Of a stretch of DNA of 64,000 bases, positions 1,928 through 29,261 are shown piece after piece. The stretch is from Dehalococcoidia bacterium (GTDB taxonomy: Bacteria; Chloroflexota; Dehalococcoidia; Bin125). The stretch lies in assembly GCA_034421135.1 (NCBI GenBank), contig DAOUKQ010000029.1, positions 76,357-140,356 on the forward strand. Reading direction: 5' to 3'. Numbering within the stretch: the stretch's first letter is position 1; each line of letters begins with the position of its first letter. Under the pieces are notes generated by a model, which made no database searches, was not told the DNA's origin, and worked only from the letters and a program-made list of their open reading frames with translations. A program made the translations under genes and the position numbers.

Positions 1928-2005
1928 GGTGGGCGTCGCCTAGAGGCCTAAGGCGCCAGGTTGTGGCCCTGGTATTCGTGGGTTCGAATCCCACCGTCCA
2001 CCCCA
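1928..2005 (+). tRNA. tRNA-His (anticodon GTG) with extra 5' G-1
   Basis: G-GTGGGCG...CCAGGTTGTGGCCCTGG...GTGGGTTCGAATCCCAC CGTCCAC C CCA; anticodon loop TTGTGGC gives GTG; G-1 is typical of tRNA-His. Confidence 0.8.
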
Positions 2006-2057
2006 CCGAATCTTCGCACTCCTCTCTCTCCATCCCGAACGGCAATCGCGGAGAACG

Positions 2058-2576
2058 ATGGTGAACTTCTCAATGGCCCGTCTACCGCTCGCCTTCATGC
2101 TGCTGATCGCGCTGCTCGGCGGTCTGGCGGCCGCCTGCGGCGGCGACGACGATGAGGAGCGGCTGGCCGCACAGCGGATGTTCCGCAACTACCTGATTCA
2201 ATCGGATCGCACCGCGATCGCCGATGTTCGTGTGCAGGGACTCGTCGACGAGTTGCCGCCGAGCTTCCCCGAGCATGAGCAGTTGGAATTGCTCGGCTCG
2301 GCCTTCAGCGACACTGAAACGCGTCGCGAACTCATCGTTGGCTGGCAATCGGACGACGAGCACGCCGACGACATCTTCAGTTGGTTCCGATCCCGTCTCG
2401 ACACCGATCCCTGGCGAGTGACCGCCGATCCACAACGCGCTGGCGTCGATTTCATCACCTTCCGCGACGCTGACAATCCCGCGTTCCGCGGCGAACTGCG
2501 CATCGCCCAGGAGGGCGACCGAGCGATCGTCGTGCTCGTCGCCGTCGAGACGCTCGCAGTTGACGACGGGGCGTAG
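2058..2576 (+). CDS. Hypothetical secreted protein / probable lipoprotein
   Basis: 172 aa; N-terminal signal peptide MARLPLAFMLLIALLGGLAAACGG with Cys after an Ala-rich lipobox-like stretch; acidic mature part. Confidence 0.5.
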   Translation: MVNFSMARLPLAFMLLIALLGGLAAACGGDDDEERLAAQRMFRNYLIQSDRTAIADVRVQGLVDELPPSFPEHEQLELLGSAFSDTETRRELIVGWQSDDEHADDIFSWFRSRLDTDPWRVTADPQRAGVDFITFRDADNPAFRGELRIAQEGDRAIVVLVAVETLAVDDGA

Positions 2577-2863
2577 GCTCACCGATCGTGGTTTGATGCC
2601 GTTCGTCGTTCGTTTGCGACCTGTCTCGTGGACAATCGGTTCCGTCATTGCCTCACTCCGGCGCGGCAATCTCACCTTCGACAAGCGCGGGTATGACGGT
2701 GTGGTGTGTACGTGACCCGCTTCTCCGACTGTGTCCGGCGGCACTGATTCGGCTCTATACAGATCATATGTTCTTGTAGTATTGCTCGCACTCGCTTGCG
2801 TGGCGATGGCGCTGTCGCTGGGCAAGCGTCCGATGCAGTGCAGCAACGAAACAGGGGTGTCCC

Positions 2864-3124
2864 ATGACCGAACACGAAGGAGGCGAACAGATTGAGGTTC
2901 CTCACGGTCCCGCGACTCGTGAGGAGGTGATGGCGGGGATACGCAGGTTGGCCTATGAGGCCAGTTCCGAGACCGTCTGCCTGCGAGCGTGGGAGTTGAT
3001 GGGCAAGGACATCGGCATGTTCAAGGACGCGCCCGGGGAAGGCGGCGCGCCGGTTGTGCGCATGACGCCGTCGCTGGAAGCCGAACCGAGCATCGAAGGG
3101 GCGGACCATGACAACGAGCAGTAG
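2864..3124 (+). CDS. Small hypothetical protein (phage-associated, overlaps terminase start)
   Basis: 86 aa ORF overlapping the terminase start by 17 nt; preceded by an AT-richer promoter-like region; no recognisable domain. Confidence 0.35.
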   Translation: MTEHEGGEQIEVPHGPATREEVMAGIRRLAYEASSETVCLRAWELMGKDIGMFKDAPGEGGAPVVRMTPSLEAEPSIEGADHDNEQ

Positions 3125-4499
3125 CGTCTCCCTTGACCTCCGCGTCTTGCAACCAGGCGACCGCCACTTCAGACCGACCGAGCGCCAGCTCGCTGTCTAT
3201 GAAGCGCTGCGCGGGACGCCGGCGAGTGGTCTCACGCTGGTCGGATACGGCGGCGCGATGGGCGGCGGCAAGACTCGGGCCGTCGCCGAACTGGCGATCG
3301 ATACCGCCCTCTCCTTCCCTGGCACAAACATCCTCGTCGCCAGGCAGCATTACTCCAACCTGCAAACGACGACCATGCGCGAGTTCTTCGATTGCCTGCC
3401 CCAGCGATTGGTCGTGGAACGACATCGGTCGTCGCCGCAGTGGGTGGCGATCCGCGACGCCGCCTGGCCGAGGGGCGAGCGATCCACGATTCACTTCCGC
3501 CACCTGACCGAGTGGTCGGGCTTGGGTTCGGAGCAGTACGGCGCGGTGTTCATCGACGAAGCGGGCGAGGTCGCCGAAGAGGCCGCGCAAATGCTGCTCA
3601 CCCGGCTCCGCCATCCGGCTCAGCCGCAGCGATGGTTTGTCGCTGCGTCGAATCCCTGGCCGGGCTGGTTCGAGCGCTGGTTCACCCGTCGCGAGCTCGA
3701 CGAGGAATCCCTCGCCGCGGCGGGCGGCCGAATCGTCTTCATTCCCGCCAAAGTCGACGACAATCCGCATCTGCCCGCTCACTACGCCGAGCAGCAGCGC
3801 GCGCTGCAGCCGGGCGAGTGGGTCGACCGTTTCATCGACGGCCGCTTCGACGCGTTCGACGGCCAGATCTACCAGCACTTCGACGCGTCGCGGCACTGCT
3901 GGGACGCCCCGCTGCCGCCGTTCGCCCGCTACATCGGTGGTCTCGACTTCGGAGGACAATCGCCGCGCGACCACTACACGGCGGGTGTCGTCGCGGGCAT
4001 CACCGGCGGGAATGCGCCGTGCGGCGCAAACATCCTCATTCGTCTCGGCGAGTTCGAGGATCGCGGCCCCGGCGTCACCGAGCGGCTGGAGCAGTGGCAG
4101 CGATCCTGGCGACATAAGCTGGGTCCGATCCAGTGGTGCGCCGACCGCTCGCAGTCGGCCTGGATCGATCATCAACGCCGCCAGGGACTCAACGTCGTGC
4201 CCAGCAAGGGCGGCCCCGACTCCGTCAATTGGGGCATTTCGCTGGTCCAGCAACGACTCAACGGCGATCCGCCCAGCTCGTACTACGTCCCCGGCATGAC
4301 CCAGTTTCCAACTCGCATTCGCGAGTACCAGTGGGATCGCTCGGCGCACGATCAGTCGCCCAAACCGCGCAAGCGCAACGACGACTTGCTCGACGCCGAC
4401 CGCTATATGCACGAACTCAGCGTCAAGTCGCAGTCGTTCCCTCCGCGAATCATCATCAACCATCCGCCCCGAGGCCAGGATGCCCGCTGGCGGGGATGA
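3108..4499 (+). CDS. Phage terminase large subunit (PBSX/Terminase_6-like ATPase plus nuclease)
   Basis: 463 aa; Walker A GYGGAMGGGKTRA, Walker B VFIDEAGEV, C-terminal RNase-H-like nuclease region (GGLDFGG...); no other phage morphogenesis genes adjacent. Confidence 0.75.
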   Translation: MTTSSSVSLDLRVLQPGDRHFRPTERQLAVYEALRGTPASGLTLVGYGGAMGGGKTRAVAELAIDTALSFPGTNILVARQHYSNLQTTTMREFFDCLPQRLVVERHRSSPQWVAIRDAAWPRGERSTIHFRHLTEWSGLGSEQYGAVFIDEAGEVAEEAAQMLLTRLRHPAQPQRWFVAASNPWPGWFERWFTRRELDEESLAAAGGRIVFIPAKVDDNPHLPAHYAEQQRALQPGEWVDRFIDGRFDAFDGQIYQHFDASRHCWDAPLPPFARYIGGLDFGGQSPRDHYTAGVVAGITGGNAPCGANILIRLGEFEDRGPGVTERLEQWQRSWRHKLGPIQWCADRSQSAWIDHQRRQGLNVVPSKGGPDSVNWGISLVQQRLNGDPPSSYYVPGMTQFPTRIREYQWDRSAHDQSPKPRKRNDDLLDADRYMHELSVKSQSFPPRIIINHPPRGQDARWRG

Positions 4500-5434: not shown

Positions 5435-5546
5435 GTCGGTGCTCCTCGGTGTTCGCTGCTGCTAGGCTACGCCGCTGTCAAGTAGAACGCAAGTACTGTG
5501 CGCCCTGGTATCCACTGAGTATCATGACCCGCAGGAGGATTGCGAC

Positions 5547-6188
5547 ATGGTGACCACGGCCGCGCCGTCCAGGCAATCCGCAGACCGGTCTCCCGGTTTC
5601 AACCGGTCGGATGAAGTGGTGATCGCCTTCCCCGACGACCTCAGCCTGACCGATGAACTGATCTGCGAACTGTCGCGCCTCAACGATTCGCTCAGGCTGG
5701 AACGGGACGAGCAAGGGAGGCTGCTGGTGTCGCCTGGGCCGGACTATGACAGCGACGATCACGCTGCGGAGTTGATCGAACAGATCAGCGTGTGGAATCG
5801 TACCCAACGCGGTCGCACGTTGATCCCAAGTACCACGTTGCATCTCCCCGACCACAATCTGCGCATGCCGGACGCCGGCTGGCTCAGTCCCGAGACGGCG
5901 GAACAAGCGCGCTCGGGCGAGCGCCCCTATCCGCAGGTCGTGCCGGACTTCGTGGTTGAGGTGCGTTCCTCAAACGACCGGTTGCCGGTTCAACAGGAAA
6001 AGATGGCCATGTGGATGCGCAATGGCGTCCGCCTCGGCTGGCTCGTCGATCCGTCTTCGCGCACGGTCTGGGTCTATCGACCCGACACAGAAGCGCAGGC
6101 TCATCAGGATCCCGGAGAGCTTTCGGCCGATCCTCCCTGCGAGGGCCTGACGATCTCGTTCGAACGCGTTTGGCGGACAGCGGAGTAG
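5547..6188 (+). CDS. Uma2 family (DUF820) restriction-endonuclease-fold protein, copy 1
   Basis: 213 aa; PD-(D/E)xK-like core PDFVVEVRSSNDRL...KMAMWMRNGVRLGWLVDP...VWVYRPD typical of Uma2/DUF820. Confidence 0.75.
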   Translation: MVTTAAPSRQSADRSPGFNRSDEVVIAFPDDLSLTDELICELSRLNDSLRLERDEQGRLLVSPGPDYDSDDHAAELIEQISVWNRTQRGRTLIPSTTLHLPDHNLRMPDAGWLSPETAEQARSGERPYPQVVPDFVVEVRSSNDRLPVQQEKMAMWMRNGVRLGWLVDPSSRTVWVYRPDTEAQAHQDPGELSADPPCEGLTISFERVWRTAE

Positions 6189-6404: not shown

Positions 6405-6485
6405 GCTCAGGCGACATGAACTAGCACGTAAGTACTGTGCTAATCGCGCCTACCTGGGTATCATGGCGCTAAGGAGGATTGCGAC

Positions 6486-7127
6486 ATGGTGACCACGGCA
6501 GCGCCGTCCAGGCAATCCGCATCCCGCTCGTTCGCCTCAGTCTTGCAGGGCGAGGTCGCGATTGCGTTTCCGGACTCGATCAGCCTGACCGATGAGCTGA
6601 TCTGCGAACTGTCGCGCCTCAACGATTCGCTCAGGCTGGAGCGGGACGAGCAAGGGAGGCTGCTGGTGTCGCCTGGGCCGGACTATGACAGCAACCGAGT
6701 GGGCGCTCGCATTTTGGCGCAAATCTTCGCCTGGGATCCGGAATGGCTTGGGGAGCCGCTTGATCCTTCGTCGACGCTGCACCTTCCCGACCACAATCTG
6801 CGCATGCCGGACGCCGGTTGGCTCAGTCCCGAGACGGCGGAACGGGCGCGCTCGGGCGAGCGCCCCTATCCGCAGGTCGTGCCGGACTTCGTGGTTGAGG
6901 TGCGGTCTTCGAACGACCGGCTGTCCGTTCAACAGGAAAAAATGGCCATGTGGATGCGCAATGGCGTCCGCCTCGGCTGGCTCGTCGATCCGCCTTCGCG
7001 CACGGTCTGGGTCTATCGACCCGACACAGAAGCGCAGGCGCATCAGGATCCCGGAGAGCTTGCGGCCGATCCTCCCTGCGAGGGCCTGACGATCTCGTTC
7101 GAGCGCGTTTGGCTGATGGCGGAGTAG
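6486..7127 (+). CDS. Uma2 family (DUF820) protein, copy 2 (tandem duplicate of 5547..6188)
   Basis: 213 aa, identical to copy 1 except two divergent patches (aa 13-24 and 68-98). Confidence 0.75.
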   Translation: MVTTAAPSRQSASRSFASVLQGEVAIAFPDSISLTDELICELSRLNDSLRLERDEQGRLLVSPGPDYDSNRVGARILAQIFAWDPEWLGEPLDPSSTLHLPDHNLRMPDAGWLSPETAERARSGERPYPQVVPDFVVEVRSSNDRLSVQQEKMAMWMRNGVRLGWLVDPPSRTVWVYRPDTEAQAHQDPGELAADPPCEGLTISFERVWLMAE

Positions 7128-7137
7128 GCTCGAAGGC

Positions 7138-8241
7138 ATGTCCGACCGCGACAATCGAGCCGTCCGACTCACCGACCTCGCCCGCTGCGGCGGTTGAGGC
7201 TCGAAGTTTGGCCCCGAGGGGCTGGCGCACGTGCTGCGCCATCTTGGACCACAGTTTCCGCCCGAGCAGCATCCCGAGTTGCTCGTCGGCCTCGACCGGC
7301 CCGACGACGCAGCGGTCTACGCGCTCGACGACGAACGCGCGCTTGTGCAGACGCTCGATTTCTTCGCGCCGTTGGTCGACGACCCATACCAGTTCGGCGC
7401 AATCGCGGCCGCCAACGCCATGTCGGATGTCTACGCAATGGGTGGACGCGTCCTCTTCGCGCTCAACATCGCCGCCTTCCCCGACGACCTCCCGCCCGAC
7501 ATAATCGCGGAAGTCCTGCGCGGAGGCGCAGACAAGGTTCGCGAAGCTGGAGCCGTGATCGCCGGCGGACACACGATCATCGACGAAGAGCCCAAGTACG
7601 GTCTCGCGGTCACTGGCGAAGTCGCACGCGAACTGATTCGCACAACCGGCGGCGCACAGCCGGGCGACACGATCATTCTGACCAAGGAAATCGGCACCGG
7701 CGTCCTGATTGGCGCGAACCAGCAGGGCGCGGTGTCAGCGGAGCACTGGGACGGTGCAGTCTCGCAAATGATGTCGCTGAACCGGGATGCGGCCGAAGTC
7801 TCATCCGCTTCCGACCTGGCGCAGGGCGTCCATGCGATCGCAGACGTGACCGGCTTCGGACTCGCTGGACACCTGCATGAGATGTCGGGGCTGAGCGATG
7901 CCGCGATCGAGATTGACCTCGGCGCGGCGCCGGCGCTGGGCGGCCTTTCGGAGGCCGTGGCGGCAGGATTCGGCAGCGGCGGACAGAGTCGCAATCGCGA
8001 GTACTATGGCGCGCGCCTGACGGTCGAGGGCGACCGCGCACTGACCGCCTTCGAGGAAGCGCTGCTCTACGACCCGCAAACTTCCGGAGGCCTGCTGATC
8101 TCTGCGGGCATCATCGAGGCGCCGCATCTGATCCACGAACTTCAGCAACGCGGCGTCCAGGCGACACCCGTCGCTCGCGTGATTGAATCCGCCGCCGGCG
8201 GGCGACTGAGCGTTATTCCCTCGGAGACGCCGCGTGTCTGA
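7138..8241 (+). CDS. selD: Selenide, water dikinase (selenophosphate synthetase), selenocysteine-containing; in-frame UGA at 7195-7197
   Basis: ORF track starts at GTG 7231, but the in-frame upstream reads ATG(7138) MSDRDNRAVRLTDLARCGG-TGA-GSKFGPEGLAHVL, matching the E. coli SelD N-terminus [30 protein letters not shown] with UGA aligned to catalytic Cys17; downstream has AIAAANAMSDVYAMGG and the AIR-synthase-like fold. Confidence 0.8.
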
Positions 8242-9466
8242 TGCGTCCGGCAGTTGGGACGCCGATATCGCCGTCATCGGCGCGGGCATTCTCGGACTCT
8301 CGACTGCGATGGCCCTCGCCACATCGCACGACGACCTGCGTGTCGTCGCGCTGGAGCAGGAATCCGGCGTCGGACGACACCAGAGCGGCAACAACTCGGG
8401 CGTGATTCACTCCGGGCTGTACTACCGGCCCGGCTCAGCCAAGGCGCGCATGGCCGTGGCCGGCGCCGAGCGGATGTACGCCTTCTGCGACGAACACGGC
8501 ATCGGCGCAGAGCGCTGCGGTAAGGTTGTCGTCGCGACCCATGAGTCCGAACTCGAGCGGATGCGCGAGCTGCACCGTCGCGGCGACGCCAACGGCGTGC
8601 CCGACATCCGCGAGCTCGGACCCGACGAACTGCGCGAGTTTGAGCCCAACGCGGCCGGCGTCGCCGCGCTGCACATCCCGTCGACCGGCATCGCCGACTA
8701 CCGAGGCGTCTGCGAGAAGTACCGCGAGCTGCTGCAATCGGCTGGCGGATCGGTGCGGCTGCGGTCCCGCGTCTCGGGCGTTCGCGTCGACGCCGACGGC
8801 GTCCGGCTCTCGACCTCTACGGGAATCGTCCGCGCCAGGTACGTCGTCAACTGCGCCGGACTGCAGGCAGACCGCATCGCTCGGCGGGCGGGCGCGTCCG
8901 AGGCTCGCGACCTGCGCATCGTCCCGTTTCGCGGCGAGTACTACGACCTCGTGCCCTCGGCGCGGCACATGCTCAAGAACCTGATCTATCCCGTGCCCGA
9001 CCCGGCCTTCCCGTTCCTCGGCGTGCATTTCACGCGGCGGCTGGACGGCACCGTCGAGGCGGGCCCCAACGCCGTCCTGGCGCTCAAGCGCGAGGGCTAC
9101 CGCTGGCGCGACATCTCCGCCCGCGACACGGCGGAATCGCTGACCTGGCCCGGCTTCCTCCGGCTGGCCAGGGGCCACTGGCAGACCGGCCTCGGAGAAA
9201 TCTGGCGCAGCGCCAACAAACCCGCCTTCGTCAACGCCCTCCAACGCCTGATGCCCAACCTCGAACCCGATCAACTCACCCGAGGAGGAGCCGGAGTCAG
9301 AGCCCAAGCCCTCCGCCGAGACGGCACCTTAGCCGACGACTTCGAAATCGCCCACCAGGATCGCCTCATCCACATCCTCAACGCCCCCAGCCCCGGCGCC
9401 ACGGCCAGCCTGCTTATCGGAGAAGAAATCGCAGCGACGGCAGAGTCGGCATGGTTGGGGGGATAA
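8234..9466 (+). CDS. lhgO: L-2-hydroxyglutarate oxidase/dehydrogenase (FAD-dependent)
   Basis: 410 aa; N-terminal FAD Rossmann DIAVIGAGILGLSTAMAL; alignable along its length to E. coli LhgO/YgaF (GNNSGVIHSGLYY, RIVPFRGEYY, AGVRAQA, NAPSPGATAS). Confidence 0.8.
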   Translation: MSDASGSWDADIAVIGAGILGLSTAMALATSHDDLRVVALEQESGVGRHQSGNNSGVIHSGLYYRPGSAKARMAVAGAERMYAFCDEHGIGAERCGKVVVATHESELERMRELHRRGDANGVPDIRELGPDELREFEPNAAGVAALHIPSTGIADYRGVCEKYRELLQSAGGSVRLRSRVSGVRVDADGVRLSTSTGIVRARYVVNCAGLQADRIARRAGASEARDLRIVPFRGEYYDLVPSARHMLKNLIYPVPDPAFPFLGVHFTRRLDGTVEAGPNAVLALKREGYRWRDISARDTAESLTWPGFLRLARGHWQTGLGEIWRSANKPAFVNALQRLMPNLEPDQLTRGGAGVRAQALRRDGTLADDFEIAHQDRLIHILNAPSPGATASLLIGEEIAATAESAWLGG

Positions 9467-9476: not shown

Positions 9477-10808
9477 ATGACGACCTACCGAGCCACCGAG
9501 GAATCGCAGGATCAACAGGTGCGAGAGCAGTTGCTGCTCAAGGGCATGCCGTCCGAGTACGCGGATAGGCGGGCTTCCCGAAACCAGATACTGGACGGCG
9601 ACCGCCCGATCCACGACTGGTATCGCTTCGTCCTGTCCTTTCCACCGCACCTGGTCCGGGAGTACCTCGAACGCTTTGAGGTCGAGGACGGCATGGTCGT
9701 GCTCGATCCGTTCTGCGGCACCGGCACCACAACGGTCGAAGCCAAGAAGCAGGGAATCGAGTCGATCGGCATCGAGGCGGTTCCCCTCTCAGCCTTCGCA
9801 GCCCGAACCAAGGTCGACTGGTCAATCGATCCGGATGAATTGGTACGCAACGCAGAAGCGATCTCTGAAAGAGCGAACACCAGCATTGCTGCTTCCGATG
9901 ATCAATCGCCTCGTCGGCTCTCCCCTGACCAGAACAGGTTGCTTCTAAAGGATTCGATCAGCCCGCGGCCTCTGCACCGAACACTGCTGCTGCTCGACGA
10001 AATCGATCAGTGCGCCGGTCCGAGCACTCCATTTCTGAGGCTGGCCCTGGCGCGAGAGCTTCCAACTAGGATCGGCAATCTCCGCTTTGGCCCGGAAATC
10101 GGTCTCGGCAACATCAAAGAGGATGCGCCGGTCGTCGATGTCTGGTCCGATCAGGTGCGGCGGATGGCCGACCACCTGCGCATGTGGAAGAAGCACGACT
10201 CAGTGCCGTCGCAGGTGATTCATGGCGACGCACGCACGCCCGACGCGCTCTTGGAGCCCGACAGTATCGATCTGGTCATCACCTCACCGCCATACCCAAA
10301 CGAGAAGGACTACACCCGCACCGTTCGGCTCGAATCGGTGCTGCTCGGCTTCATTCACGACCGGGATTCATTGCGAGAAGTCAAGAAGGGCCTGGTCCGC
10401 TCGAACACGCGAAGCGTCTACAAGCACGATGACGACGACGCCTGGCTTGATCAGTTCCCGTTGATCGGCGAACTGGCCGACCAGATCGAAGCGAAGCGCA
10501 TCGAACTGGGCAAAACCTCAGGCTTCGAGCGGATGTATCACCGCGTGACCCGACTCTATTTCGGTGGTATGGCGAGACACCTGGCGTCCCTCAGGACACC
10601 GCTCAAATCAGGTGCGCGGCTCGCCTACGTCGTCGGCGATCAGGCCTCGTACTTCCGAATCATGATCCGAACCGGAACGCTATTGGCCGAGATTGCGGAG
10701 CGCCTCGGCTACCAGGTGGACAGCATCGACCTCTTCCGGACGCGGGCCGCGACCGCCACCCGTGCCCAGATTAATGAAGAGGTCGTCGTGTTGAAGTGGC
10801 CGGGTTGA
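9477..10808 (+). CDS. SAM-dependent DNA methyltransferase (motif I then motif IV; alpha-class-like N6A/N4C MTase), putative R-M modification subunit
   Basis: 443 aa; motif I VLDPFCGTGTTTVEA at ~aa 75, motif IV DLVITSPPY at ~aa 265 with ~190 aa between (TRD-like); start ATG immediately after lhgO stop; 13-nt overlap with the downstream nuclease-fold gene. Confidence 0.6.
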   Translation: MTTYRATEESQDQQVREQLLLKGMPSEYADRRASRNQILDGDRPIHDWYRFVLSFPPHLVREYLERFEVEDGMVVLDPFCGTGTTTVEAKKQGIESIGIEAVPLSAFAARTKVDWSIDPDELVRNAEAISERANTSIAASDDQSPRRLSPDQNRLLLKDSISPRPLHRTLLLLDEIDQCAGPSTPFLRLALARELPTRIGNLRFGPEIGLGNIKEDAPVVDVWSDQVRRMADHLRMWKKHDSVPSQVIHGDARTPDALLEPDSIDLVITSPPYPNEKDYTRTVRLESVLLGFIHDRDSLREVKKGLVRSNTRSVYKHDDDDAWLDQFPLIGELADQIEAKRIELGKTSGFERMYHRVTRLYFGGMARHLASLRTPLKSGARLAYVVGDQASYFRIMIRTGTLLAEIAERLGYQVDSIDLFRTRAATATRAQINEEVVVLKWPG

Positions 10809-11608
10809 TGCCTCGAATCACGAAGTACGACCGAATCATCTCGCAGATATTCAAGACACACGACGACGGCAGCGCTTCCTTCGAGTTTCCCCGAGCAGCT
10901 ATTGCCGAGGCTGCTGATGCGCTCGGTCTGTCTGCTCCGAAGAACGTCGGCGATGTGATCTATACCTACCGCTCTCGCAGGGATCTACCAGCCGACATTC
11001 AGCAACGAGCGGAGTCGGGGCGCGAATGGATCATCCGGACCGTCGGAACCGCGCAGTATGAGTTCGTCCAGGTCCGTTGGGGAGGAGCGCAACCATCCCA
11101 GAGCCTCGCGGAGACACTGATCCCGGACAGCACTCCGGCCTTGATCGAAAAGTACCGTCAGTCTGATGAACAGGCCTTGCTCGCCATCGTCCGCTATAAC
11201 CGGTTGATCGACGTATTCACCAAGCTGAGCTGCTTCTCGGTGCAGAGCCACCTGCGAACCAATCTTGAGGGCATCAGCCAAGTCGAGATCGACGAGCTCT
11301 ACGTCGGCATCGACCGGCGCGGCGCACACTACGTCCTACCGATCGAGGTCAAGTCGCGCACGGATCGTCTCGGCGCGGCGCAGGTATCCAATCTGTTCGC
11401 CCTCGCCGATCAGAAGTTCCCCAGCCTGATCCCGCGCCCAATCGGCGCGCAGTTCGTTACCGACGATCTGATTGCACTGTTCGAGTTCGAACGCGGCGTC
11501 AACAACCTCGACCTCTCAGTCGTCGCCGAGAAACACTATCGCTTGGCGCCAGCAGACGACATCTCCGACGATCTGATTCGCCGCTACGCCCAAAGACCCG
11601 ACGACTGA
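10796..11608 (+). CDS. Putative Type II restriction endonuclease (PD-(D/E)xK fold), no recognisable family
   Basis: 270 aa; candidate catalytic core GIDRRGAHYVLPIEVKSRTD (D...ExK); translationally coupled to the MTase. Confidence 0.45.
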   Translation: MAGLMPRITKYDRIISQIFKTHDDGSASFEFPRAAIAEAADALGLSAPKNVGDVIYTYRSRRDLPADIQQRAESGREWIIRTVGTAQYEFVQVRWGGAQPSQSLAETLIPDSTPALIEKYRQSDEQALLAIVRYNRLIDVFTKLSCFSVQSHLRTNLEGISQVEIDELYVGIDRRGAHYVLPIEVKSRTDRLGAAQVSNLFALADQKFPSLIPRPIGAQFVTDDLIALFEFERGVNNLDLSVVAEKHYRLAPADDISDDLIRRYAQRPDD

Positions 11609-13733: not shown

Positions 13734-13943
13734 GTGCGCGTCCGTACCGCACGGCAGATCAACCGGATTCTTGAACGGCAAGGGTTCGTCCAGGTCAGGC
13801 AACGCGGCAGCCACCGCCGGTACCGGGCCGTCATCAAGGGTATTGAACGAAACGTGACCGTGTCTCAGCATCGTGACATTCCTCCACGAACACTGAAGAC
13901 GATCATCGAACAATCCGGACTCCCGCGAGACCTGTTCGAGTAG
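13734..13943 (+). CDS. hicA: HicA family mRNA interferase toxin
   Basis: 69 aa; conserved GSH(R) motif and C-terminal PRTLKTIIEQSGL characteristic of HicA/YcfA. Confidence 0.75.
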   Translation: MRVRTARQINRILERQGFVQVRQRGSHRRYRAVIKGIERNVTVSQHRDIPPRTLKTIIEQSGLPRDLFE

Positions 13944-13962
13944 CCCGCGTATCCTCCTCTGC

Positions 13963-15150
13963 ATGACTACTGACAACACTCTCCTCCCGCCGCTCGACGG
14001 CATCACCGTCATCAACGCCGGCCAGATTCTCGCCGCTCCTCACTGCGCCACCATGTTGGCCGAGTTTGGGGCGGATGTCATCAAGGTCGAACGGCCTGGA
14101 TCCGGCGAACCCAATCACGGCACCATCTCCTATGTCCAGGAGAACCGTTCGCAGCGCGGGGTGACCTGCAACCTCGCCGATCCGCGCGGCAAGGAGCTGT
14201 TCCGACAACTCTGCGGGCGGGCCGATGTGCTGATCGAGAACTTCCGGCCGGGCACGTTGGAGAAGATGGGGCTATCGCCCGACTCGCTGCGCGAGCTGAA
14301 TCCCGAGCTTGTCGTGACCCGCGTCTCGGGCTACGGTCAGACCGGACCGTATCGCGAGAAGGCCGGTTTCGACCGGGTCGCGCTGGGATTCGCCGGAATG
14401 ACCTACACGACCGGCTGGGCCGACGGTCCGCCGGTGCGACCGGGCTACATGGTCGCCGACTACTCGGCCGGCGTCTTCGCCGCGATGGGCACGCTGATGG
14501 CGCTGCGGGCGCGCGATGTCAACGGCGGCGTGGGACAGGATGTCGATGTCGCGCTCTACGAGGCGATCTGGAAACAGTCGGGCACGCACGCGTCGCAGTT
14601 CTACATGACGGGAGAGAATCGCGAGCGCTCGGGCAACTATTGGCCCGGCGTCGTGCCAGCCGAACAATGGCAGACCGCCGACGGACACCACCTGATCATT
14701 AACGCGACTACGCAGGGCACATTCGTCCGCCTGGTCGAGGCGATGCAGCGTCCCGACCTGCTGACTGACGAGCGCTTCGAGATCCACCGCGACCGTCGTC
14801 GCAACTACGAGTCTCTGCACGAGATCGTGGGCGAGTGGATCGGCTCAATGACGCTGGAACAGGTCCAGCACCTACTGGACAAGCACGGCGTCCCGGCAAC
14901 CAAGGTCTACGCGACATCCGACGTGATGGCGGACGAGCACTACGAGGCTCGCGAGCAAATCGTCACGGTGCCCTCGGAGCAGCACGGCGAGCTGCCCCAG
15001 CCTGGCATCACGCCGAGGCTGTCGAAGACGCCAGGCGCCGTCAAGCATCGAGCGCCGACGCTGGGCGAGCACAATCGCGAAATCTACGGCGGGATGCTCG
15101 GCGTGAGCGACGATGAGCTGGACGCGTTGTCGGCAGACGGTGTGATCTAG
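13963..15150 (+). CDS. CoA-transferase family III (CaiB/BaiF) protein
   Basis: 395 aa; N-terminal LDGITVINAGQILAAPHCATMLAEFGADVIKVE and C-terminal APTLGEHNREI typical of CaiB/BaiF. Confidence 0.8.
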   Translation: MTTDNTLLPPLDGITVINAGQILAAPHCATMLAEFGADVIKVERPGSGEPNHGTISYVQENRSQRGVTCNLADPRGKELFRQLCGRADVLIENFRPGTLEKMGLSPDSLRELNPELVVTRVSGYGQTGPYREKAGFDRVALGFAGMTYTTGWADGPPVRPGYMVADYSAGVFAAMGTLMALRARDVNGGVGQDVDVALYEAIWKQSGTHASQFYMTGENRERSGNYWPGVVPAEQWQTADGHHLIINATTQGTFVRLVEAMQRPDLLTDERFEIHRDRRRNYESLHEIVGEWIGSMTLEQVQHLLDKHGVPATKVYATSDVMADEHYEAREQIVTVPSEQHGELPQPGITPRLSKTPGAVKHRAPTLGEHNREIYGGMLGVSDDELDALSADGVI

Positions 15151-15193
15151 GGACTCACGCATTGCTACGATTTCGGCAACTATTGGAGATGGC

Positions 15194-15841
15194 ATGATCA
15201 CCAGCGCTCCTGCCGACGCACCACCGCTCCCCGGGTTGATCCGCATCGGTTGCGGCCTGAGTGCGATCAGCGACGAAGACCTCGAGCGGATCTGTGACGA
15301 GAACCCAGGTTGGAAGTTCGAGCTCGACGAAGACGGGGAGTTGGTGATCAACGTGTACGCCGGTGATGAGAGTTCGGACGTCGGAGCGGAACTTGGGGGA
15401 CAGCTTCGCAATTGGCGCATCGGCGGCGGCGGTGGACGAGCCCGAGACGCCAGCGCCGGTTACCGCATGACCGACACCGAGGGACGCACGCGGTTGCTGG
15501 AACCGGATGTCTCCTGGGTGAGTCCTGAACGGCTGGCCGCGGCCACACGCGAAGACGTGAAGGGCGCGATGTCGTTCAATCCGGACTTTGTCGTCGAGGT
15601 TCGCTCGCCCAGCGATAGCTTGAGTGATCAACAGACCAAGATGGAAATCTGGATGCACTTCGGCGTGCGCCTCGGCTGGCTCGTCGATCTCGACGCCTGC
15701 AACGTGTGGATCTACCGGCAAGGTCAGGAGCCGCAGCTCCTTGAGCGACCCTCGACGCTGGACGGCGAAGACGTGCTGGTCGGCCTTGAGGTCGACTGCG
15801 CTGAAATCTGGCGTCTGGCCGACGAAGCCAACGCGGACTGA
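15194..15841 (+). CDS. Uma2 family (DUF820) protein, paralog 3
   Basis: 215 aa; PDFVVEVRSPSDSLSDQQTKMEIWMHFGVRLGWLVDLDACNVWIYRQG. Confidence 0.7.
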   Translation: MITSAPADAPPLPGLIRIGCGLSAISDEDLERICDENPGWKFELDEDGELVINVYAGDESSDVGAELGGQLRNWRIGGGGGRARDASAGYRMTDTEGRTRLLEPDVSWVSPERLAAATREDVKGAMSFNPDFVVEVRSPSDSLSDQQTKMEIWMHFGVRLGWLVDLDACNVWIYRQGQEPQLLERPSTLDGEDVLVGLEVDCAEIWRLADEANAD

Positions 15842-18221: not shown

Positions 18222-19610
18222 ATGACGCGAAGTATCTCCGCTTTCGCCACATGGCGGCGCCACACGTTCGCAGCGCTCAACGATCGTCACTTCCGCGTGC
18301 TCTTCGCAGGCACGATGTTCGCCACCTTCGGCTACATGATGATGATGATGGTCATGGCGATCGTCGCCTATGACCTGTCTGGCAACAACACGGCGGTGGG
18401 GCTGATTGGGAGCGGGGTCGGACTGGCGATGCTGCTGGCCCCGTTTGGCGGCGTGATCGCCGACCGGGTGAATCGCAAGCGGTTGATTGTCCTGGGACAG
18501 GGCGGCGGAGCGGGGATGCTGATCCTGACGGGTCTGCTGCTCGCCTTCGACCTGATGTCGCTGCCCTTGATGTTCGTCTTGATGATGGTGCTGGGCTTCA
18601 CCTTTGTGCTGATGGGACCGGCCCGCAACGCCTTCACCGCCGATCTCGTGGGTCCGCGGCTGATCGGCAATGCGGTGGTGCTGAACCAGTTGGCCCATAC
18701 CTGGGGAGCGCCGTTCTCACCCTTCATTGCGACCTTCGCGATGGATTCGTTCATCGGTTCCGGCGGCACATACATGTTGATGGGCGCGCTAGTCAGCGTC
18801 GGCGTCTTCACGATGGTCATCATGCCGAATCGCGGCAAAGTGGCGAGGCGCGCCGAGACGACCGATGGGCCGATCCGGAGCGTGCTCAGCGACATCGCCG
18901 ACGGAGCCCGCTACGTGTGGCAACGGCCATCGTTGAGGTTGATGCTCGCCGTGTTCGTCAGCGCGGTCGTGATTGGCTTCCTCTTCCGCACGTTGGCGCC
19001 GGCCCTGCTCGAAGAGCACCTGGGCCGCAAGTCGACCGAGATGGGGCCGCTCCTGTTGGTCTATGGACTCGCATCAGCGGCCGTATCGCTCTTTGTCGCC
19101 GGCGCAGCGACCACGCGCTGGGCCTGGCCGGTCGTGCTCATCATGATCGCGGTGATGGGCGTTGGTTACTTCGTGCTTGCACAGGCTCAAAGCTACGGCG
19201 GCGCGATGATCTCCATGGCTCTGCTCGGTCCCGGCATGATGGGACCGGTCATGATCCTCCAGGCGCGGCTGATGATGCACACCGAGTCGGCCTACTACGG
19301 CCGGGTCATGTCATTCACCATGATGTCGTGGGGCGTGCAGATGCTCTGCGGGCTGCCGGCCGGGATTCTCGCGGACATGATTGGCGAGCGGGAGGTGCTC
19401 GCCGGAGCGGGGCTACTCTCGGTCGTCGTTGCGGTGCTGGCGACGCTCGGTTGGCTAGCGATTCGCAAGCACGACCGTCCGCCGTTGCCGGCGATTCCAT
19501 CTCTGGCGGGCGAAACAAATGGCGGAGGCGCAGTGGCCGTACAAGCCATGCCCCCACCGCCAATGCTCCGCTCGGTGGCGCTGATGTCGGGTCAGAAGCT
19601 CGACAACTGA
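18222..19610 (+). CDS. MFS transporter
   Basis: 462 aa, ~12 predicted TM helices, MFS-type loop motifs (GVIADRVNRKRL). Confidence 0.7.
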   Translation: MTRSISAFATWRRHTFAALNDRHFRVLFAGTMFATFGYMMMMMVMAIVAYDLSGNNTAVGLIGSGVGLAMLLAPFGGVIADRVNRKRLIVLGQGGGAGMLILTGLLLAFDLMSLPLMFVLMMVLGFTFVLMGPARNAFTADLVGPRLIGNAVVLNQLAHTWGAPFSPFIATFAMDSFIGSGGTYMLMGALVSVGVFTMVIMPNRGKVARRAETTDGPIRSVLSDIADGARYVWQRPSLRLMLAVFVSAVVIGFLFRTLAPALLEEHLGRKSTEMGPLLLVYGLASAAVSLFVAGAATTRWAWPVVLIMIAVMGVGYFVLAQAQSYGGAMISMALLGPGMMGPVMILQARLMMHTESAYYGRVMSFTMMSWGVQMLCGLPAGILADMIGEREVLAGAGLLSVVVAVLATLGWLAIRKHDRPPLPAIPSLAGETNGGGAVAVQAMPPPPMLRSVALMSGQKLDN

Positions 19611-19703
19611 GCGGGCGACCCGCCTCTGGTCCATTTTCCTGATGTAGGGGCGATCCTTGTGGTCGCCCTGCCTGCTCTCTGCGGTTGCCTCGCCCCGAGA
19701 AGA

Positions 19704-23490: not shown

Positions 23491-23640
23491 TTCCAAGCGC
23501 ATTGCAAGCGCTTCGTTGTGACGCGAGTTACTGTTCGCTACTGCGAACGCAGACCCTCAGCGCGGGCGGATCCGCCCAGCCTCCGCGCCGCATGATCCTC
23601 TCCGACGCCGGTCTGGCGGGTCTTCGCTTATCCTCCGCTC

Positions 23641-26070
23641 ATGCTGACCGAAACCAGAATTCTCGACCTGACCGACGAACCGTTGGCGCTGGGCGCGCGA
23701 CTCCTGGCCGACCTGGGCGCGGAGGTGGTTCGCGTCGAAGACGCCGCGGGCGACCATCTACGCATGAGGGAACCGGCGATTGATGGCCACGCACCTCGCT
23801 GCGAGCGCGGCTGGGCGCACCTGCTCTACAACGCCGGTAAGCGTTCCGTCGCGGTCGACGTCGCCGATCCTCAGACGTGGTCCCGGATCGAATCGCTGTT
23901 GCCGGAGTTCGATGCGCTCCTCGCTCCGCTCGCGCCCCGGGATGTGTCCGACGCGCTGGCCGAGTGGCTCGAACGCGGACGGCGCGGGGAATGGGCGTCT
24001 GAGATTCCGGTCGTCGACGCCGTGTTCCGCTTCGGCGCCGACGAGCCGATGACCGACCTGACCGCGATGGCCGCGGGCGGGCATGTCGTGCTCAACGGTC
24101 ACCCCGAGGACCCGCCGGTCTGGCCAGGCGGCAATCTCTCGCACAAGCAAGGTTCGATCTCAATGGCCGAGGCCGCCATGGCGCTCATCCTGCAACGCCG
24201 ACGAGGCGGAGGGTGCGGGCGTATCACGGTCGGGATGCAGGAGGCGGTCGCCTTCACCACGTTGCAGACCGCCAGCGGCAACTTCTGGACCTGGCACGGC
24301 ATGTCGCCCGACCGTCACATCCCGATCGGCTCCGGCGCCACCTTCCAGGCCGGCGACGGCCATTGGCTCTCGTTCACGATCCATCCGCCGCACTGGTACC
24401 GATTCGTCAACTGGGTCGACGAGGTGCTCGGCCTTGAGCCGGGCGAGTTGCGCGGCGAGCACTGGGACGACGAGTTCTGGCGCGAGCAGCAGCAGGACGA
24501 GATCAGAACGTACATCGACCGGCTCTGCAAGGCGCTCAGCATCGGCGAACTCCACGATCGAGGCCAGGAGCTTGGCCTGCTGGTGCTGCCTATCAACACC
24601 GTCGAGGAGGTCGCCGAGGACCCGCACCTCTGGGCTCGCGGCTACTACCAGGAGACCGAACACCCTCAGCTCAACCGGGCGCTGATCCTCCCACGCCCCG
24701 CCGTCCGCACTCGAGGCGAGCAACCCCAGGCCGTACGAGCTCCACACCTCGGCGAACACAACGACGAAGTCCTCCCAAGCTCCCCCTCCGATCCCCTCTC
24801 CCTGCGGGAGAGGGCTAGGGTGAGGGTCCCCTCCGCCACGCTCTACGACACCCAACCCCCACCCCGACGCCCGCTCGACGGCGTCCGCGTGATGGACTTC
24901 ACCTGGGCAATCGCCGGATCTCTCGGCACTCGGCTGCTTGCCGACCTCGGCGCCGAGGTGATCAAGATCGAGTCCGAATCACGTATCGATCCGATCCGCT
25001 ACCGCGGCGTGCAGCCGCCCGATCACTTCTCGATCAACACCAACGGCACGTTCAACGACTGCGCCGGCGGCAAGAAATCGGTCACGCTCAATCTCAAGAC
25101 CGAAGAGGGCATTGAGGCCGTCCGCCGCCTGGCTGAACAGGCCGACGTGGTCACCTCCAACTACACGCCATACCGGCTCGACCGCTGGGGCATCGGCTAC
25201 GACGACCTGCGCAAGATCAAGGACGACATCATCGTCTGCAACGTCGCTGTGATGGGCATCGAGGGACCGCGAGCCGAATGGCGCTCCTATGGCAACGGCA
25301 TCATTGCGATGTGCGGTCTGGCCCATCGTTCGGGCTTCCCTGGTCGCGCGCCGATCGGTCTGGGCACGTTGCACTCCGACTTCACGGTCCCCTACTACCT
25401 GTCGATGTCGGTCATGGCCGCGCTCGATGAGCGAGAGCGCACCGGCAACGGTCGATACCTCGAAATCGCGCAGTACGAGACCGCCGTGCAACTGCTCGAC
25501 ACCGAGCTGATCGAGGCGCTCAACGGCGCCGGCGAGCGTCCGCGCATGGGTAACCGCTCGCCGTTCATGTCCCCGCACGGCGTCTTTCCCGCCATCGGCG
25601 ACGACCGCTGGGTCGCCATCGCCTGCCGCGACGACGCCGACTGGCGCAACCTGTGCCGCGTCATCGGCCGTGCCGACCTGGCCTCGCGGGACGACCTCTC
25701 AACCGTCGCCGGTCGTAAGGCCAGCGAGGACGAGTTGGAAGCGATCCTTTCAGGGTGGACGCAATCGCAGGACGAGTGGACGTCCTACCGCTTGCTGATC
25801 AACGCCGGCGTTCCAGCCAGTCCGGTCGAGCGTCTTGAGGATTTCTTCGTCGGTCAGGACCCGGCGATGAATGACCACTTCAACCCGGCCGAGTCGCCCG
25901 AGGGCTGCACCTTCCAGATTCAGCAAGAACCGATCCTCTGGGACGGCCATCGCCTACCCGCCGTCCGAGCCCCGATCTGGGGAGAGCACAACGACGACAT
26001 CCTGCGAAACCTCCTCGGCTACTCCGAAGAAGACATGATCCAACTCGCCGCCTCAGGCGCGATTGGCTAA
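23641..26070 (+). CDS. Tandem-fused double CoA-transferase family III (CaiB/BaiF) protein
   Basis: 809 aa; domain 1 starts LDLTDEPLALGARLLADLGAEVVRVE and ends with the canonical C-terminal APHLGEHNDEVLP; domain 2 starts LDGVRVMDFTWAIAGSLGTRLLADLGAEVIKIE and ends APIWGEHNDDIL; the ~30-aa linker (SPSDPLSLRERARVRVPSATLYDTQPPP) is encoded by a family-B repeat (24786-24836). Confidence 0.75.
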   Translation: MLTETRILDLTDEPLALGARLLADLGAEVVRVEDAAGDHLRMREPAIDGHAPRCERGWAHLLYNAGKRSVAVDVADPQTWSRIESLLPEFDALLAPLAPRDVSDALAEWLERGRRGEWASEIPVVDAVFRFGADEPMTDLTAMAAGGHVVLNGHPEDPPVWPGGNLSHKQGSISMAEAAMALILQRRRGGGCGRITVGMQEAVAFTTLQTASGNFWTWHGMSPDRHIPIGSGATFQAGDGHWLSFTIHPPHWYRFVNWVDEVLGLEPGELRGEHWDDEFWREQQQDEIRTYIDRLCKALSIGELHDRGQELGLLVLPINTVEEVAEDPHLWARGYYQETEHPQLNRALILPRPAVRTRGEQPQAVRAPHLGEHNDEVLPSSPSDPLSLRERARVRVPSATLYDTQPPPRRPLDGVRVMDFTWAIAGSLGTRLLADLGAEVIKIESESRIDPIRYRGVQPPDHFSINTNGTFNDCAGGKKSVTLNLKTEEGIEAVRRLAEQADVVTSNYTPYRLDRWGIGYDDLRKIKDDIIVCNVAVMGIEGPRAEWRSYGNGIIAMCGLAHRSGFPGRAPIGLGTLHSDFTVPYYLSMSVMAALDERERTGNGRYLEIAQYETAVQLLDTELIEALNGAGERPRMGNRSPFMSPHGVFPAIGDDRWVAIACRDDADWRNLCRVIGRADLASRDDLSTVAGRKASEDELEAILSGWTQSQDEWTSYRLLINAGVPASPVERLEDFFVGQDPAMNDHFNPAESPEGCTFQIQQEPILWDGHRLPAVRAPIWGEHNDDILRNLLGYSEEDMIQLAASGAIG
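24786..24836. repeat. Family-B REP-like hairpin repeat (CCCTCTCCCTGCGGGAGAGGGCTAGGGTGAGGGTCC) inside the CoA-transferase linker
   Basis: Near-identical motif at 29455-29500; CTCTCCC-N3-GGGAGAG palindrome. Confidence 0.65.
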
Positions 26071-26122: not shown

Positions 26123-27448
26123 TCAGGGAATGTCAGGGTCGTAATCCATGCCGATGTGACCCCGCTCGACCAGGCCGGCGATCTCAGCGTCTGAGAAACC
26201 GAGCACCTCGCGATAGACGTACTCGTTGTCCTCACCCAGCGCGACGGGCGGCTTGCGGATGCTGAGCGGCGTCTCGGAGAACTTCATGAACGGAGTGTTG
26301 AAGCGGAATCTGCCGACGCCGTCGTGCAAATCGTGCGCTTCATTCAGGCCGCGGAACTGAACGTGCGGATCGTCGTAGATGCGCGCCGCTTCCAGGACCG
26401 GCGCAGCAGGAACGCCGTGGGACTGCAGCAAGTGCATCAGCTCGTAGTCGTCTCGTGACGAAGTCCACTCGCCGATTCGCTGGTCTAGCTCGTCGTGCCG
26501 CGCCATCCGGCCCTCGTTGTAGCGCAATTCCGGATCACGAGCCCACTCAGGATCGCCCATCGCCTCGCGCAGGCCGAACCACTGCTCGTCGTCCATCACC
26601 GAGATCGAAATCCAGCGGTCGCCGCCATCCGATCCATCGCCGTCGGACTTCGCCGGATACAGGTTGTACGGCGCATATCCGTCCACCGAGCGATTGCCCC
26701 GACGCTCCTGCACGACTCCGTTGAAGGAGTAGTCCATGAAGGCCTGGGCGAGCATGCCTCCTGCGCACTCGGCTTGCGCGAGTTCGATGAACTGACCCTC
26801 GCCGGTGCGCCGACGATGCCGCAGCGCGGACATGACCGCGAATGCGCCATGAGCGCCGGCCACATAATCCCCGGAGAAGATCGACGTGATGTACGACGGG
26901 TCGAGATCGGGATATCCGCGCAGGAGTGTGTGTCCCATCACCGATTCGAGATGTACGCCCAGCGCTCGGGCGTAGAGGTACGGACCGCTCGCGCCGTAGG
27001 CCGGCATCCGCACGGCGACCAGGTCCTCGCGCGCCTCGCGGAGGAAGTCGGGGCCAATGCCAATCTTCTCCAGCGTGCCGGTCGCGTTGTTCTCGACCAG
27101 CGCATCGGACTCGGCCACGAGTCGCGCGAAGATCTCGCGGCCCTCGTCGGAGACCAGGTCAACCGTCATTGAGTGCTTGTTGCGGTACTGCTGCACGAAC
27201 GTGGGGCAGTAGTTCCACGGTCGAGGCCCGGGCTCGGCGTTGGGATACCCCATCGCCCAGCCTGCGCCGGCGCTCACCAACGCCGGCGAAGGACGCGCCT
27301 GACCGCCGCGCGTCATCGGCTGCCAGACGTGCATGTTCTCGACCTTGATCACCTCCGCGCCAAGATCGGCGAGCAACGTCGTGGCAAACGTCCCCGCCCA
27401 GACGACGGTGAGGTCAATCACCCGGATTCCCGACAGCGGTAAGGTCAT
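26123..27448 (-). CDS. CoA-transferase family III (CaiB/BaiF) protein
   Basis: 441 aa; LSGIRVIDLTVVWAGTFATTLLADLGAEVIKVE. Confidence 0.75.
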   Translation of the reverse strand: MTLPLSGIRVIDLTVVWAGTFATTLLADLGAEVIKVENMHVWQPMTRGGQARPSPALVSAGAGWAMGYPNAEPGPRPWNYCPTFVQQYRNKHSMTVDLVSDEGREIFARLVAESDALVENNATGTLEKIGIGPDFLREAREDLVAVRMPAYGASGPYLYARALGVHLESVMGHTLLRGYPDLDPSYITSIFSGDYVAGAHGAFAVMSALRHRRRTGEGQFIELAQAECAGGMLAQAFMDYSFNGVVQERRGNRSVDGYAPYNLYPAKSDGDGSDGGDRWISISVMDDEQWFGLREAMGDPEWARDPELRYNEGRMARHDELDQRIGEWTSSRDDYELMHLLQSHGVPAAPVLEAARIYDDPHVQFRGLNEAHDLHDGVGRFRFNTPFMKFSETPLSIRKPPVALGEDNEYVYREVLGFSDAEIAGLVERGHIGMDYDPDIP

Positions 27449-27465
27449 AGACGCAATCCTAGTCC

Positions 27466-27684
27466 CTACTCGAACAACGAACGCGGCAGGCCGGAACGTC
27501 GGATGATCGCGGCGAGGGTGCCACGACGCAGCGTGCGGTGCAGCGGTACGGTAAGCGGCCGATTGAGATCGCCGTCGGGTGACACGAAATTCACATGGCT
27601 GCCGCGTTGGCTGAGTTCTTCGATGCCATTCCGCGAGAGTGTCTCGCAGACTTGCCGCCCCGACAGCGCTCGTAGCTTAGCCAA
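27466..27684 (-). CDS. hicA: HicA family toxin (second copy)
   Basis: 72 aa; SQRGSHVNF...TLAAIIRRSGL. Confidence 0.7.
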   Translation of the reverse strand: MAKLRALSGRQVCETLSRNGIEELSQRGSHVNFVSPDGDLNRPLTVPLHRTLRRGTLAAIIRRSGLPRSLFE

Positions 27685-28025: not shown

Positions 28026-29237
28026 TCATCCTACCACTCCGGAACTCCGCATTGCTGCAATCTCTCCAGCCCCAAACCCGCACTCCCCCAGCACTTCATC
28101 CGTGTGCTGACCAAGCAGGGGCGGCGGACGACGCATTGTCCACGGCGACTTCGGCATGATCAACGGACGTCCGGGGATCCGCACTTCGCCCAGCTCGGCG
28201 TGCTCCACGGTCGACCAGAAGCCACGGTCGCTGAAATGGCTGTCCTCGAACAGCTCGTCGACTGAGAACAGCGGACCGCACAGCACCTTCGCCTCGCGTG
28301 CGGCCTCCCAGATTTCGCGCTTGGTCCGCTCCAACGCCCAGGGCAGGAACAGACCGTTGAACTCTTCGACCAGGTCGGGGATCAGATTGACGCCTGGCTG
28401 CCACCACTTCTCGTCCTGCAACCACTCAGGGCGACCCAGCATCTCATTCAGCCGCGGGATGCGGATCGCCGCTCCCGAGAACTCCACATAACCGTCGGCG
28501 CAGGGATAGACCCCGGCGAGCATCCCGGCGGCTGGACCCGGCGCTCGCAAGGAGCGGCGACCGGCGAACTCGAACCCAATTGTGGCCGCATGGCGACGGT
28601 CGACCCCGTTGAACTGGGCGTCGGCCATGGAAAAGTCGACATGCTGTCCCGCACCCTGCAACTCGGCGGCCGTCAGCGCAGCCATCGCGCCCGAGGCCGC
28701 GGCCGCCCCGCACTCCACCAGCGAGGCGGTCCCGTACATCTTCACCGGCTCGCGATCCTGCACGCCAATCGAGTACATCTCGCCGGCGAACCCATAGAGC
28801 ACGAGGTCGGAGATCCGGTAGTCGCGATACGGCGATTCCTGGCCGAACGGGGTGATCGAGACCATCGGCAGATCGTCCCGCAGTGACGCCACGCGCTCCC
28901 AACCAAAGCCCAACGAGTCGAGACGCCCCGGCGCTTGCGACTCAATCACGATGTCGGCACGTTCCAGCAGCCGTTCAAGAATCGGTGCCGCCTCAGGTCG
29001 CTCGATATCGAGCGCCAGCGAGCGCTTATTGGTGTTGAAGTAGAAGAACGTGCCCGACCGCTCCGGTCCCTCGACGCCCTGGTACCAGGGACCGACCGAG
29101 CGCGACGGATCGCCGCCCGGGGGTTCGATCTTGATCACATCTGCGCCGAAGTCGGCGAAGAGCTTGGTGCAATACGGCCCGGCGATGTGCTCGGTCAGGT
29201 CGAGGACGGTCACGCCGTCAAGCGGTCCAGAAGTCAT
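28026..29237 (-). CDS. CoA-transferase family III (CaiB/BaiF) protein
   Basis: 403 aa; LDGVTVLDLTEHIAGPYCTKLFADFGADVIKIE ... C-terminal LLGQHTDEVL. Confidence 0.8.
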   Translation of the reverse strand: MTSGPLDGVTVLDLTEHIAGPYCTKLFADFGADVIKIEPPGGDPSRSVGPWYQGVEGPERSGTFFYFNTNKRSLALDIERPEAAPILERLLERADIVIESQAPGRLDSLGFGWERVASLRDDLPMVSITPFGQESPYRDYRISDLVLYGFAGEMYSIGVQDREPVKMYGTASLVECGAAAASGAMAALTAAELQGAGQHVDFSMADAQFNGVDRRHAATIGFEFAGRRSLRAPGPAAGMLAGVYPCADGYVEFSGAAIRIPRLNEMLGRPEWLQDEKWWQPGVNLIPDLVEEFNGLFLPWALERTKREIWEAAREAKVLCGPLFSVDELFEDSHFSDRGFWSTVEHAELGEVRIPGRPLIMPKSPWTMRRPPPLLGQHTDEVLGECGFGAGEIAAMRSSGVVG

Positions 29238-29261
29238 GTCGCGATTCTACGTCGTGGCCTG

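Follow-up and report, generated by a model that had tools for sequence, protein, structure and literature searches.

A Chloroflexota selD gene with a conserved in-frame UGA codon and a downstream hairpin specific to UGA-type selenophosphate synthetase genes

The stretch of DNA analysed here (64,000 nucleotides, hereafter the window) carries a gene, located at 7138–8241, whose predicted product is a full-length selenophosphate synthetase (SelD; selenide, water dikinase) and which contains an in-frame UGA codon near its 5′ end. The UGA falls on a residue of the catalytic N-terminal loop, and we propose that this residue is very probably selenocysteine (Sec). An earlier note on this DNA had taken selD for a UGA-containing selenoprotein gene. 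Three features of the sequence support this designation: the same UGA is found in 63 of 87 homologous genes, the codons that precede it are under purifying selection, and a hairpin specific to Sec-type genes follows it. The coordinates of the gene and of its elements are collected in Table 1.

Table 1. The selD gene of the window and the elements discussed in the text
Feature	Positions	Strand	Description
Full-length selD	7138..8241	+	367 codons including the proposed Sec20; stop TGA 8239–8241; from translation, HMM matches and the 3U0O alignment
ATG start codon of selD	7138..7140	+	Stop codon of the upstream Uma2 gene lies 10 nt before
In-frame UGA, proposed to be read as selenocysteine (residue 20)	7195..7197	+	Equivalent to E. 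coli SelD Cys17
Hairpin 1, GGCCC-CGAG-GGGCU, −8.1 kcal/mol	7210..7223	+	Arms 7210–7214 / 7219–7223; from the fold and the clade consensus
Hairpin 2, GGCGCA-CGUGC-UGCGCC, −9.1 kcal/mol	7224..7240	+	6-bp stem, arms 7224–7229 / 7235–7240; proposed SelB-binding SECIS
GTG (Val32), false start picked by ORF finders	7231..7233	+	Inside the apical loop of hairpin 2

Reading frame of selD and conservation of its UGA codon

The selD frame begins with ATG 7138, reads MSDRDNRAVRLTDLARCGG up to the TGA at 7195–7197, resumes as GSKFGPEGLAHVL... and is then open until the TGA at 8239–8241. The six-frame ORF list gives the gene as 7231..8241 and starts it from a GTG, 93 nt downstream of ATG 7138; translation and ORF list agree with the start, the TGA and the offset that the earlier note had read from the sequence. 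The aligned ATG and the following MS[DEAQ]RD are conserved in six clade genomes, and an in-frame stop is located 7 codons upstream of the ATG.

For profile searches, the TGA codon of the product was replaced by Cys. The resulting 367-residue protein scores 354.2 bits against TIGR00476 (NCBIfam, selD; cutoff 125), in a match that begins at residue 10, i.e. upstream of the TGA, and 321.5 bits against NF002098 (cutoff 299). The curated equivalog models are thus above cutoff, in line with the earlier identification of the gene as selD. The PurM-like two-domain architecture, AIRS (PF00586) followed by AIRS_C (PF02769), is also recorded on the product. A phmmer comparison with E. coli SelD (3U0O) aligns residues 7–358 of the query with residues 4–343 of the chain (E = 2.4e-64) and pairs residue 20 (TGA) with Cys17, Ser22 with Cys19 and Lys23 with Lys20. 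Because this direct alignment places residue 20 there, the TGA takes the position of the catalytic Cys17, as had been claimed before, and Cys-type homologs carry Cys in the same place.

SelD loci were fetched from 80 species-level genomes and from relatives belonging to the clade, and the codon in the UGA column was read in 87 genes. This codon is TGA in 63 genes (Sec-type), TGC or TGT in 24 genes (Cys-type) and never anything else; such an alternation, restricted to UGA and Cys codons, is the signature of Sec/Cys pairs. Sec-type selD genes occur in Chloroflexota, Bacillota, Acidobacteriota, Gammaproteobacteria (among them Photobacterium) and other groups, and the Cys-type SelD homologs display the motif CxGCxxK at the same columns.

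Protein identity within the ten-member clade ranges from 59 to 100%. When the codons flanking the UGA are compared between the ten clade genomes and the window sequence, 80 synonymous and 22 non-synonymous differences are found, and third codon positions make up 10 of the 15 variable columns upstream of the UGA. The peptide conserved in the clade across the UGA is RLTDLARCGG-U-[GA]SK[FY]GP. This pattern of substitutions indicates that the 19 codons before the UGA are under protein-level purifying selection, and the bias toward synonymous change means that the stretch is translated in the selD frame and selected as protein.

Hairpins downstream of the UGA

When the window sequence is folded by itself, two hairpins form next to each other downstream of the UGA. 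Single-sequence folds of the 51–71 nt that follow the UGA are no stabler than those of shuffled sequences (z = 0.11 and −0.25), but these z-scores are uninformative because the DNA is 65% GC, and comparative analysis was used instead. The RNAalifold consensus of ten clade genes consists of exactly hairpins 1 and 2, with compensatory pairs at columns 18/27 (GC, CG, AU), 30/46 (GC, CG) and 33/43 (GC, UA). In the clade, the three variants of the 18/27 pair, which is part of hairpin 1, are at synonymous sites. An outer helix between 7198–7206 and 7243–7252 is present in the single-sequence fold only; it is absent from the clade consensus and was dropped. RNAalifold finds no consensus structure for all 63 Sec-type genes taken together because the lineages use different registers.

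Sec-type and Cys-type genes (63 and 24, respectively) were compared over gapless alignments that cover 63 nt from the UGA onward, and all values derived from this comparison are uncorrected for phylogeny. With this qualification, 78% of the hairpin 2 cells are paired in the 63 Sec-type genes versus 37.5% in the 24 Cys-type genes, and all six pairs are formed in 35 of the 63 Sec-type genes versus none of the 24 Cys-type genes (Fisher p = 2.8e-7, likewise phylogeny-uncorrected). Five of the six pairs have changes on both sides. The arms occur in 12 different combinations (e.g. GGCGCA/UGCGCC, GACUCA/UGAGUC, CGCACA/UGUGCG and GGUUCA/UGAGCC), several of which entail coupled amino-acid changes (Ala-Arg, Thr-Ser, Ala-Cys, Val-Ser), and in another gene group the hairpin 2 helix carries a one-base bulge. 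Loop columns 37–38 are occupied by GU in 56 of 63 Sec-type genes and in 8 of 24 Cys-type genes. Some of the signal at hairpin 2 overlaps with a conserved peptide, L-A-x-V-L-R. As judged from these alignments, hairpin 2 exists as a predicted structure, covaries and is specific to UGA-type selD.

Hairpin 1 behaves differently. In a fixed register, 59.5% of its cells are paired in Sec-type genes and 54.2% in Cys-type genes, so its pairing is not Sec-specific, and the register shifts among close relatives. Its region is nevertheless stabler in Sec-type genes (−5.4 versus −3.0 kcal/mol, p = 7e-4). The higher local stability of Sec-type genes extends to the hairpin 2 region and is lacking in a control region located further downstream. 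Within the SECIS region, hairpin 1 probably serves as a spacer or as an accessory helix.

The bacterial SECIS (bSECIS) model, in the form of the bSECISearch consensus given in PMC13188914, comprises a loop of 3–9 nt with a stem of 4–16 bp, a G in the first two loop positions, a UGA-to-loop distance of 16–37 nt and a free energy no higher than −7.5 kcal/mol. Hairpin 2 falls within all four constraints of this model, with a 5-nt CGUGC loop, a 6-bp stem, a spacing of 32 nt and a free energy of −9.1 kcal/mol. Hairpin 1 also agrees with the generic model (5-bp stem, CGAG loop with G in the second position, 17 nt, −8.1 kcal/mol). In Rfam, no family matches the window at gathering score, and none matches 7100–7320 at E values up to 10. 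The earlier note had expected a SECIS hairpin within 7198–7245 and had named two candidate stems. Both emerge from folding, as GGCCC/GGGCU (7210–7223) and GGCGCA/UGCGCC (7224–7240), and it is the latter, UGA-type-specific hairpin that corresponds to the expected SECIS.

Decoding of the UGA and the selenocysteine apparatus

In the mechanism that we propose, translation would start at ATG 7138, and at the UGA (7195–7197) SelB with Sec-tRNA(Sec) would be tethered by mRNA structure located just downstream. This structure would consist of two stacked hairpins, the second of which (7224–7240, loop CGUGC with the typical G-U) is the one specific to Sec-type selD. SelB would outcompete release factor 2 (RF2), Sec would be inserted, and translation would run to the stop at 8239–8241, so that residue 20 is the predicted site of selenium incorporation. 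Hairpin 2 is the putative SelB-binding element and is favoured over hairpin 1 because it is the Sec-specific one; since hairpin 1 also conforms to the generic model, the identity of the hairpin contacted by SelB is something that we infer.

No tRNA-Sec, selA or selB was found in the 64-kb window, in a further 10 kb upstream on the scaffold, or in the flanking sequences of nine relatives from the clade. According to motif scans of all fetched loci, selA and selB stand beside selD only in other phyla. A database search with one Chloroflexota SelB returned only Limnocylindria-like matches, none of them on clade contigs. A GTPase gene of the window (37452–39437) was considered as selB and rejected, its product being an EF-G paralog. 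The conservation of the UGA suggests that selA, selB and selC are located elsewhere in the genome. In the closest complete relative (L002), ARAGORN reports three overlapping tRNA-Arg(TCT) at 19436–19593, offset by 40 nt, which are either an artefact of assembly or an unusual periodic repeat resembling tRNA.

Reassignment of the UGA codon was rejected: selD itself ends in TGA, and prfB, the RF2 gene of the window (49576–50760, − strand; 445 bits, cutoff 370), has a +1 frameshift site of the classical programmed kind, CTT TGA C, at 50641–50636. That the RF2 gene itself has a UGA frameshift site means that UGA is otherwise a stop in this host. The prfB frame has about 25 codons before the UGA (…LQALSGRLNDILERL), after which the main ORF goes on in the +1 frame (DLAGVEAEV…); the stop-to-stop ORF list omits this first exon. 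To look for other selenoprotein genes in the window, ORF pairs joined by a TGA were listed if GC3 was coding-like both before and after it. Where the halves had been scanned against Pfam, the pairs proved to be ordinary neighbouring genes that share a frame, e.g. those for a ketoacyl synthase and RecJ at 40230–43265. A thioredoxin-like ORF at 50787–51905, which has a weak match to PDO_seleno_TRX, was also discarded as it contains neither a UGA nor a CxxC or CxxU motif.

It is extremely improbable that the UGA is a real stop, in which case either a functional gene would start from GTG 7231 or selD would be a pseudogene created by a nonsense mutation. The ORF list and all database predictions do start at this GTG, a GAGG motif is found ~11 nt upstream of it, RF2 is encoded in the window, and the Sec machinery was not found in the window or in the scaffold sequence searched. 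However, a product begun at the GTG would be devoid of the loop bearing the equivalents of Cys17 and Lys20, both of which are essential in E. coli SelD. Furthermore, the 19 codons before the UGA are conserved as protein, change mostly synonymously and align to the SelD models and to 3U0O; such protein-level selection excludes both GTG 7231 as the start and a nonsense mutation of recent origin. The same TGA has been kept in 63 genomes across phyla, which is incompatible with a recent nonsense mutation. Decoding of the UGA by a near-cognate or suppressor tRNA (e.g. Cys or Trp), with the hairpins doing nothing but stimulating read-through, is very improbable as well. It would agree with the finding of neither SelB nor tRNA-Sec in the window or in the flanks of the relatives, and UGA-adjacent stem-loops that promote such read-through have been discussed for insect SPS1 genes (PMC4561486). 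Yet in 87 genes the column holds only UGA or Cys codons, the hairpin agrees with the bacterial SECIS model in its spacing and its G-U loop, and UGA is an ordinary stop in the host.

If Sec is inserted, SelB might bind hairpin 1 (7210–7223), or both hairpins as a composite, and not hairpin 2 alone, a variant that we consider rather unlikely. Hairpin 1 is closer in its spacing to the E. coli fdhF element than hairpin 2 is, it agrees with the generic model (17 nt, −8.1 kcal/mol), it covaries within the clade (GC, CG, AU) at synonymous sites, and its region is stabler in Sec-type genes. Some Sec-type selD genes, e.g. those of Acidobacteriota, have the early hairpin only. On the other hand, the nearly equal fixed-register pairing of hairpin 1 in Sec-type and Cys-type genes (59.5% versus 54.2%) and its shifts of register among relatives speak against such a role, and it is hairpin 2 that discriminates between Sec-type and Cys-type genes and bears the conserved GU loop. 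Binding of SelB to hairpin 2 is the reading adopted below.

Genomic surroundings, annotation and relation to known systems

Downstream of selD, on the same strand, is a gene for L-2-hydroxyglutarate oxidase (lhgO, 8234–9466, + strand; NF008726, 528 bits, cutoff 299), with an overlap of 8 nt between its GTG start and the stop of selD. Nine of the ten clade genomes keep the two genes next to each other, one of them with an inserted gene, and no other fetched locus has this arrangement. The pair was considered as a selenium system, but this was rejected as the adjacency is confined to the clade; it is probably a matter of lineage synteny or co-transcription. We know of no link between lhgO and selenium. 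In a more distant Sec-type relative (L088), a second gene with AIRS/AIRS_C (PurM-like) domains is located 8 kb from selD (18666–19673, − strand), with ThiL, HypE or a SelD-like protein as candidates for its product.

The window contains five Uma2-family (putative restriction endonuclease-like) genes: 5466–6188, 6444–7127 and 15146–15841 on the + strand, and 36717–37451 and 39544–40242 on the − strand. Two tandem copies are directly upstream of selD. They are absent from this place in relatives L082–L086, where a methyltransferase gene (MGMT) abuts selD. The segment downstream of lhgO (9477–11608, + strand) holds an N6_N4 methylase gene and an unknown ORF. In each of the relatives L082, L084 and L086, the slot beside selD–lhgO is occupied by different restriction-modification-like genes: Eco57I/MmeI-type genes downstream of lhgO in L082 and L084, and XhoI plus a methylase upstream of selD in L086. 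The slot looks like a variable defence islet. Further upstream, small ORFs and a gene resembling those for the phage terminase large subunit (3066–4499) come after a tRNA-His gene (1929–2005, + strand), and the region 1929–4499 may be a prophage remnant integrated at tRNA-His. Four family III CoA-transferase genes are found within 16 kb (13897–15150 and 23596–26070 on the + strand, 26123–27676 and 28026–29246 on the − strand). One of the four encodes a protein of 825 aa with two matched stretches, possibly a duplicated domain.

The truncated SelD protein is present in identical form in public collections (scaffold_72, MAG ENA ERZ23495175, BioSample SAMN17524320), and the nearest species-level genome is a Dehalococcoidia-labelled MAG (OZ219765.1, 88% identity). 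In the protein database, every close homolog has a length of 336 aa and begins at the equivalent of GTG 7231. This uniformity indicates that gene callers systematically truncate this gene, which in the window loses its first 31 codons, as the earlier note had anticipated. Every public SelD prediction in the clade is consequently without the catalytic N-terminal loop, and the main value of the present analysis is in annotation. Owing to the truncated predictions, metabolic reconstructions would carry an apparently inactive enzyme and could miss the use of selenocysteine by these soil and sediment Chloroflexota. A signature for Sec-type selD that can be reused is the hairpin GGCGCA-NGUNN-UGCGCC at codons 10–16 after the UGA. 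No concept is changed by these results: the gene is of a well-known kind of bacterial selenoprotein gene that is routinely mis-annotated, and its host belongs to an uncultured Chloroflexota lineage. Sec-containing SelD and bacterial SECIS elements in coding regions have been known for decades.

FdhA and SelD have been reported as the most broadly distributed bacterial selenoproteins, with SelD in second place (PMC1794560, PMC5029168, PMC13188914). The SelD selenoprotein family has been treated by Zhang et al. 2006 and Peng et al. 2016, and bacterial SECIS elements in SelD genes were described by Mariotti et al. 2015 (PMC4561486). A broader reading of the present data is that SelD would be the main or only selenoprotein of the clade, the Sec apparatus being kept largely for SelD (the self-sustaining loop discussed by Zhang et al. 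2006), and that the SECIS of SelD, which has two hairpins (the second, Sec-specific one 26 nt away from the UGA) and occurs in several phyla, would be an ancient family-specific class distinct from the fdhF type. We regard this reading as distinctly unlikely.

Hairpin 2 resembles the bSECIS model in having G and then U at loop positions 2–3. It differs in that its spacing is near the upper limit of 16–37 nt, with another hairpin filling the spacer, and in that the loop of this gene has a C at either end, so that the common N1–N2 loop pair cannot form; in Gln-type relatives, the hairpin 2 loop closes to GUN. In E. coli fdhF, the minimal SECIS hairpin contains a bulged U and begins 11 nt behind the UGA. 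Like this element, hairpin 2 is a stem-loop located in the coding region on the 3′ side of the UGA and has G-U in its apical loop, but it lacks a bulge and begins only 26 nt behind the UGA. No search detected sequence similarity between the hairpin region and the fdhF SECIS. Hairpin 2 is thus bSECIS-like but outside the fdhF type, with only the loop G-U common to both.

With the Cys-type SelD of E. coli (3U0O), the predicted protein shares the glycine-rich loop, Lys20 and the AIRS fold. The E. coli enzyme differs in having Cys17 where Sec is proposed here and Cys19 in the place of Ser22, and its gene has neither a UGA nor a SECIS. The known Sec-containing bacterial SelD proteins, e.g. those of Haemophilus influenzae and Aquifex aeolicus, have in common with the window gene the enzyme family, the UGA at the Cys17 position and a coding-region stem-loop directly downstream, and the alignment with the structure of A. 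aeolicus SelD (2YYE, 2ZOD) covers the same N-terminal loop. Most other Sec-type SelD sequences in our set have CAGUA[AS]K in this loop, whereas the SelD of the window has CGGUGSK. What sets the latter apart from them is the details of its N-terminal peptide and its host lineage, an uncultured, ~65% GC, Dehalococcoidia-labelled clade of Chloroflexota.
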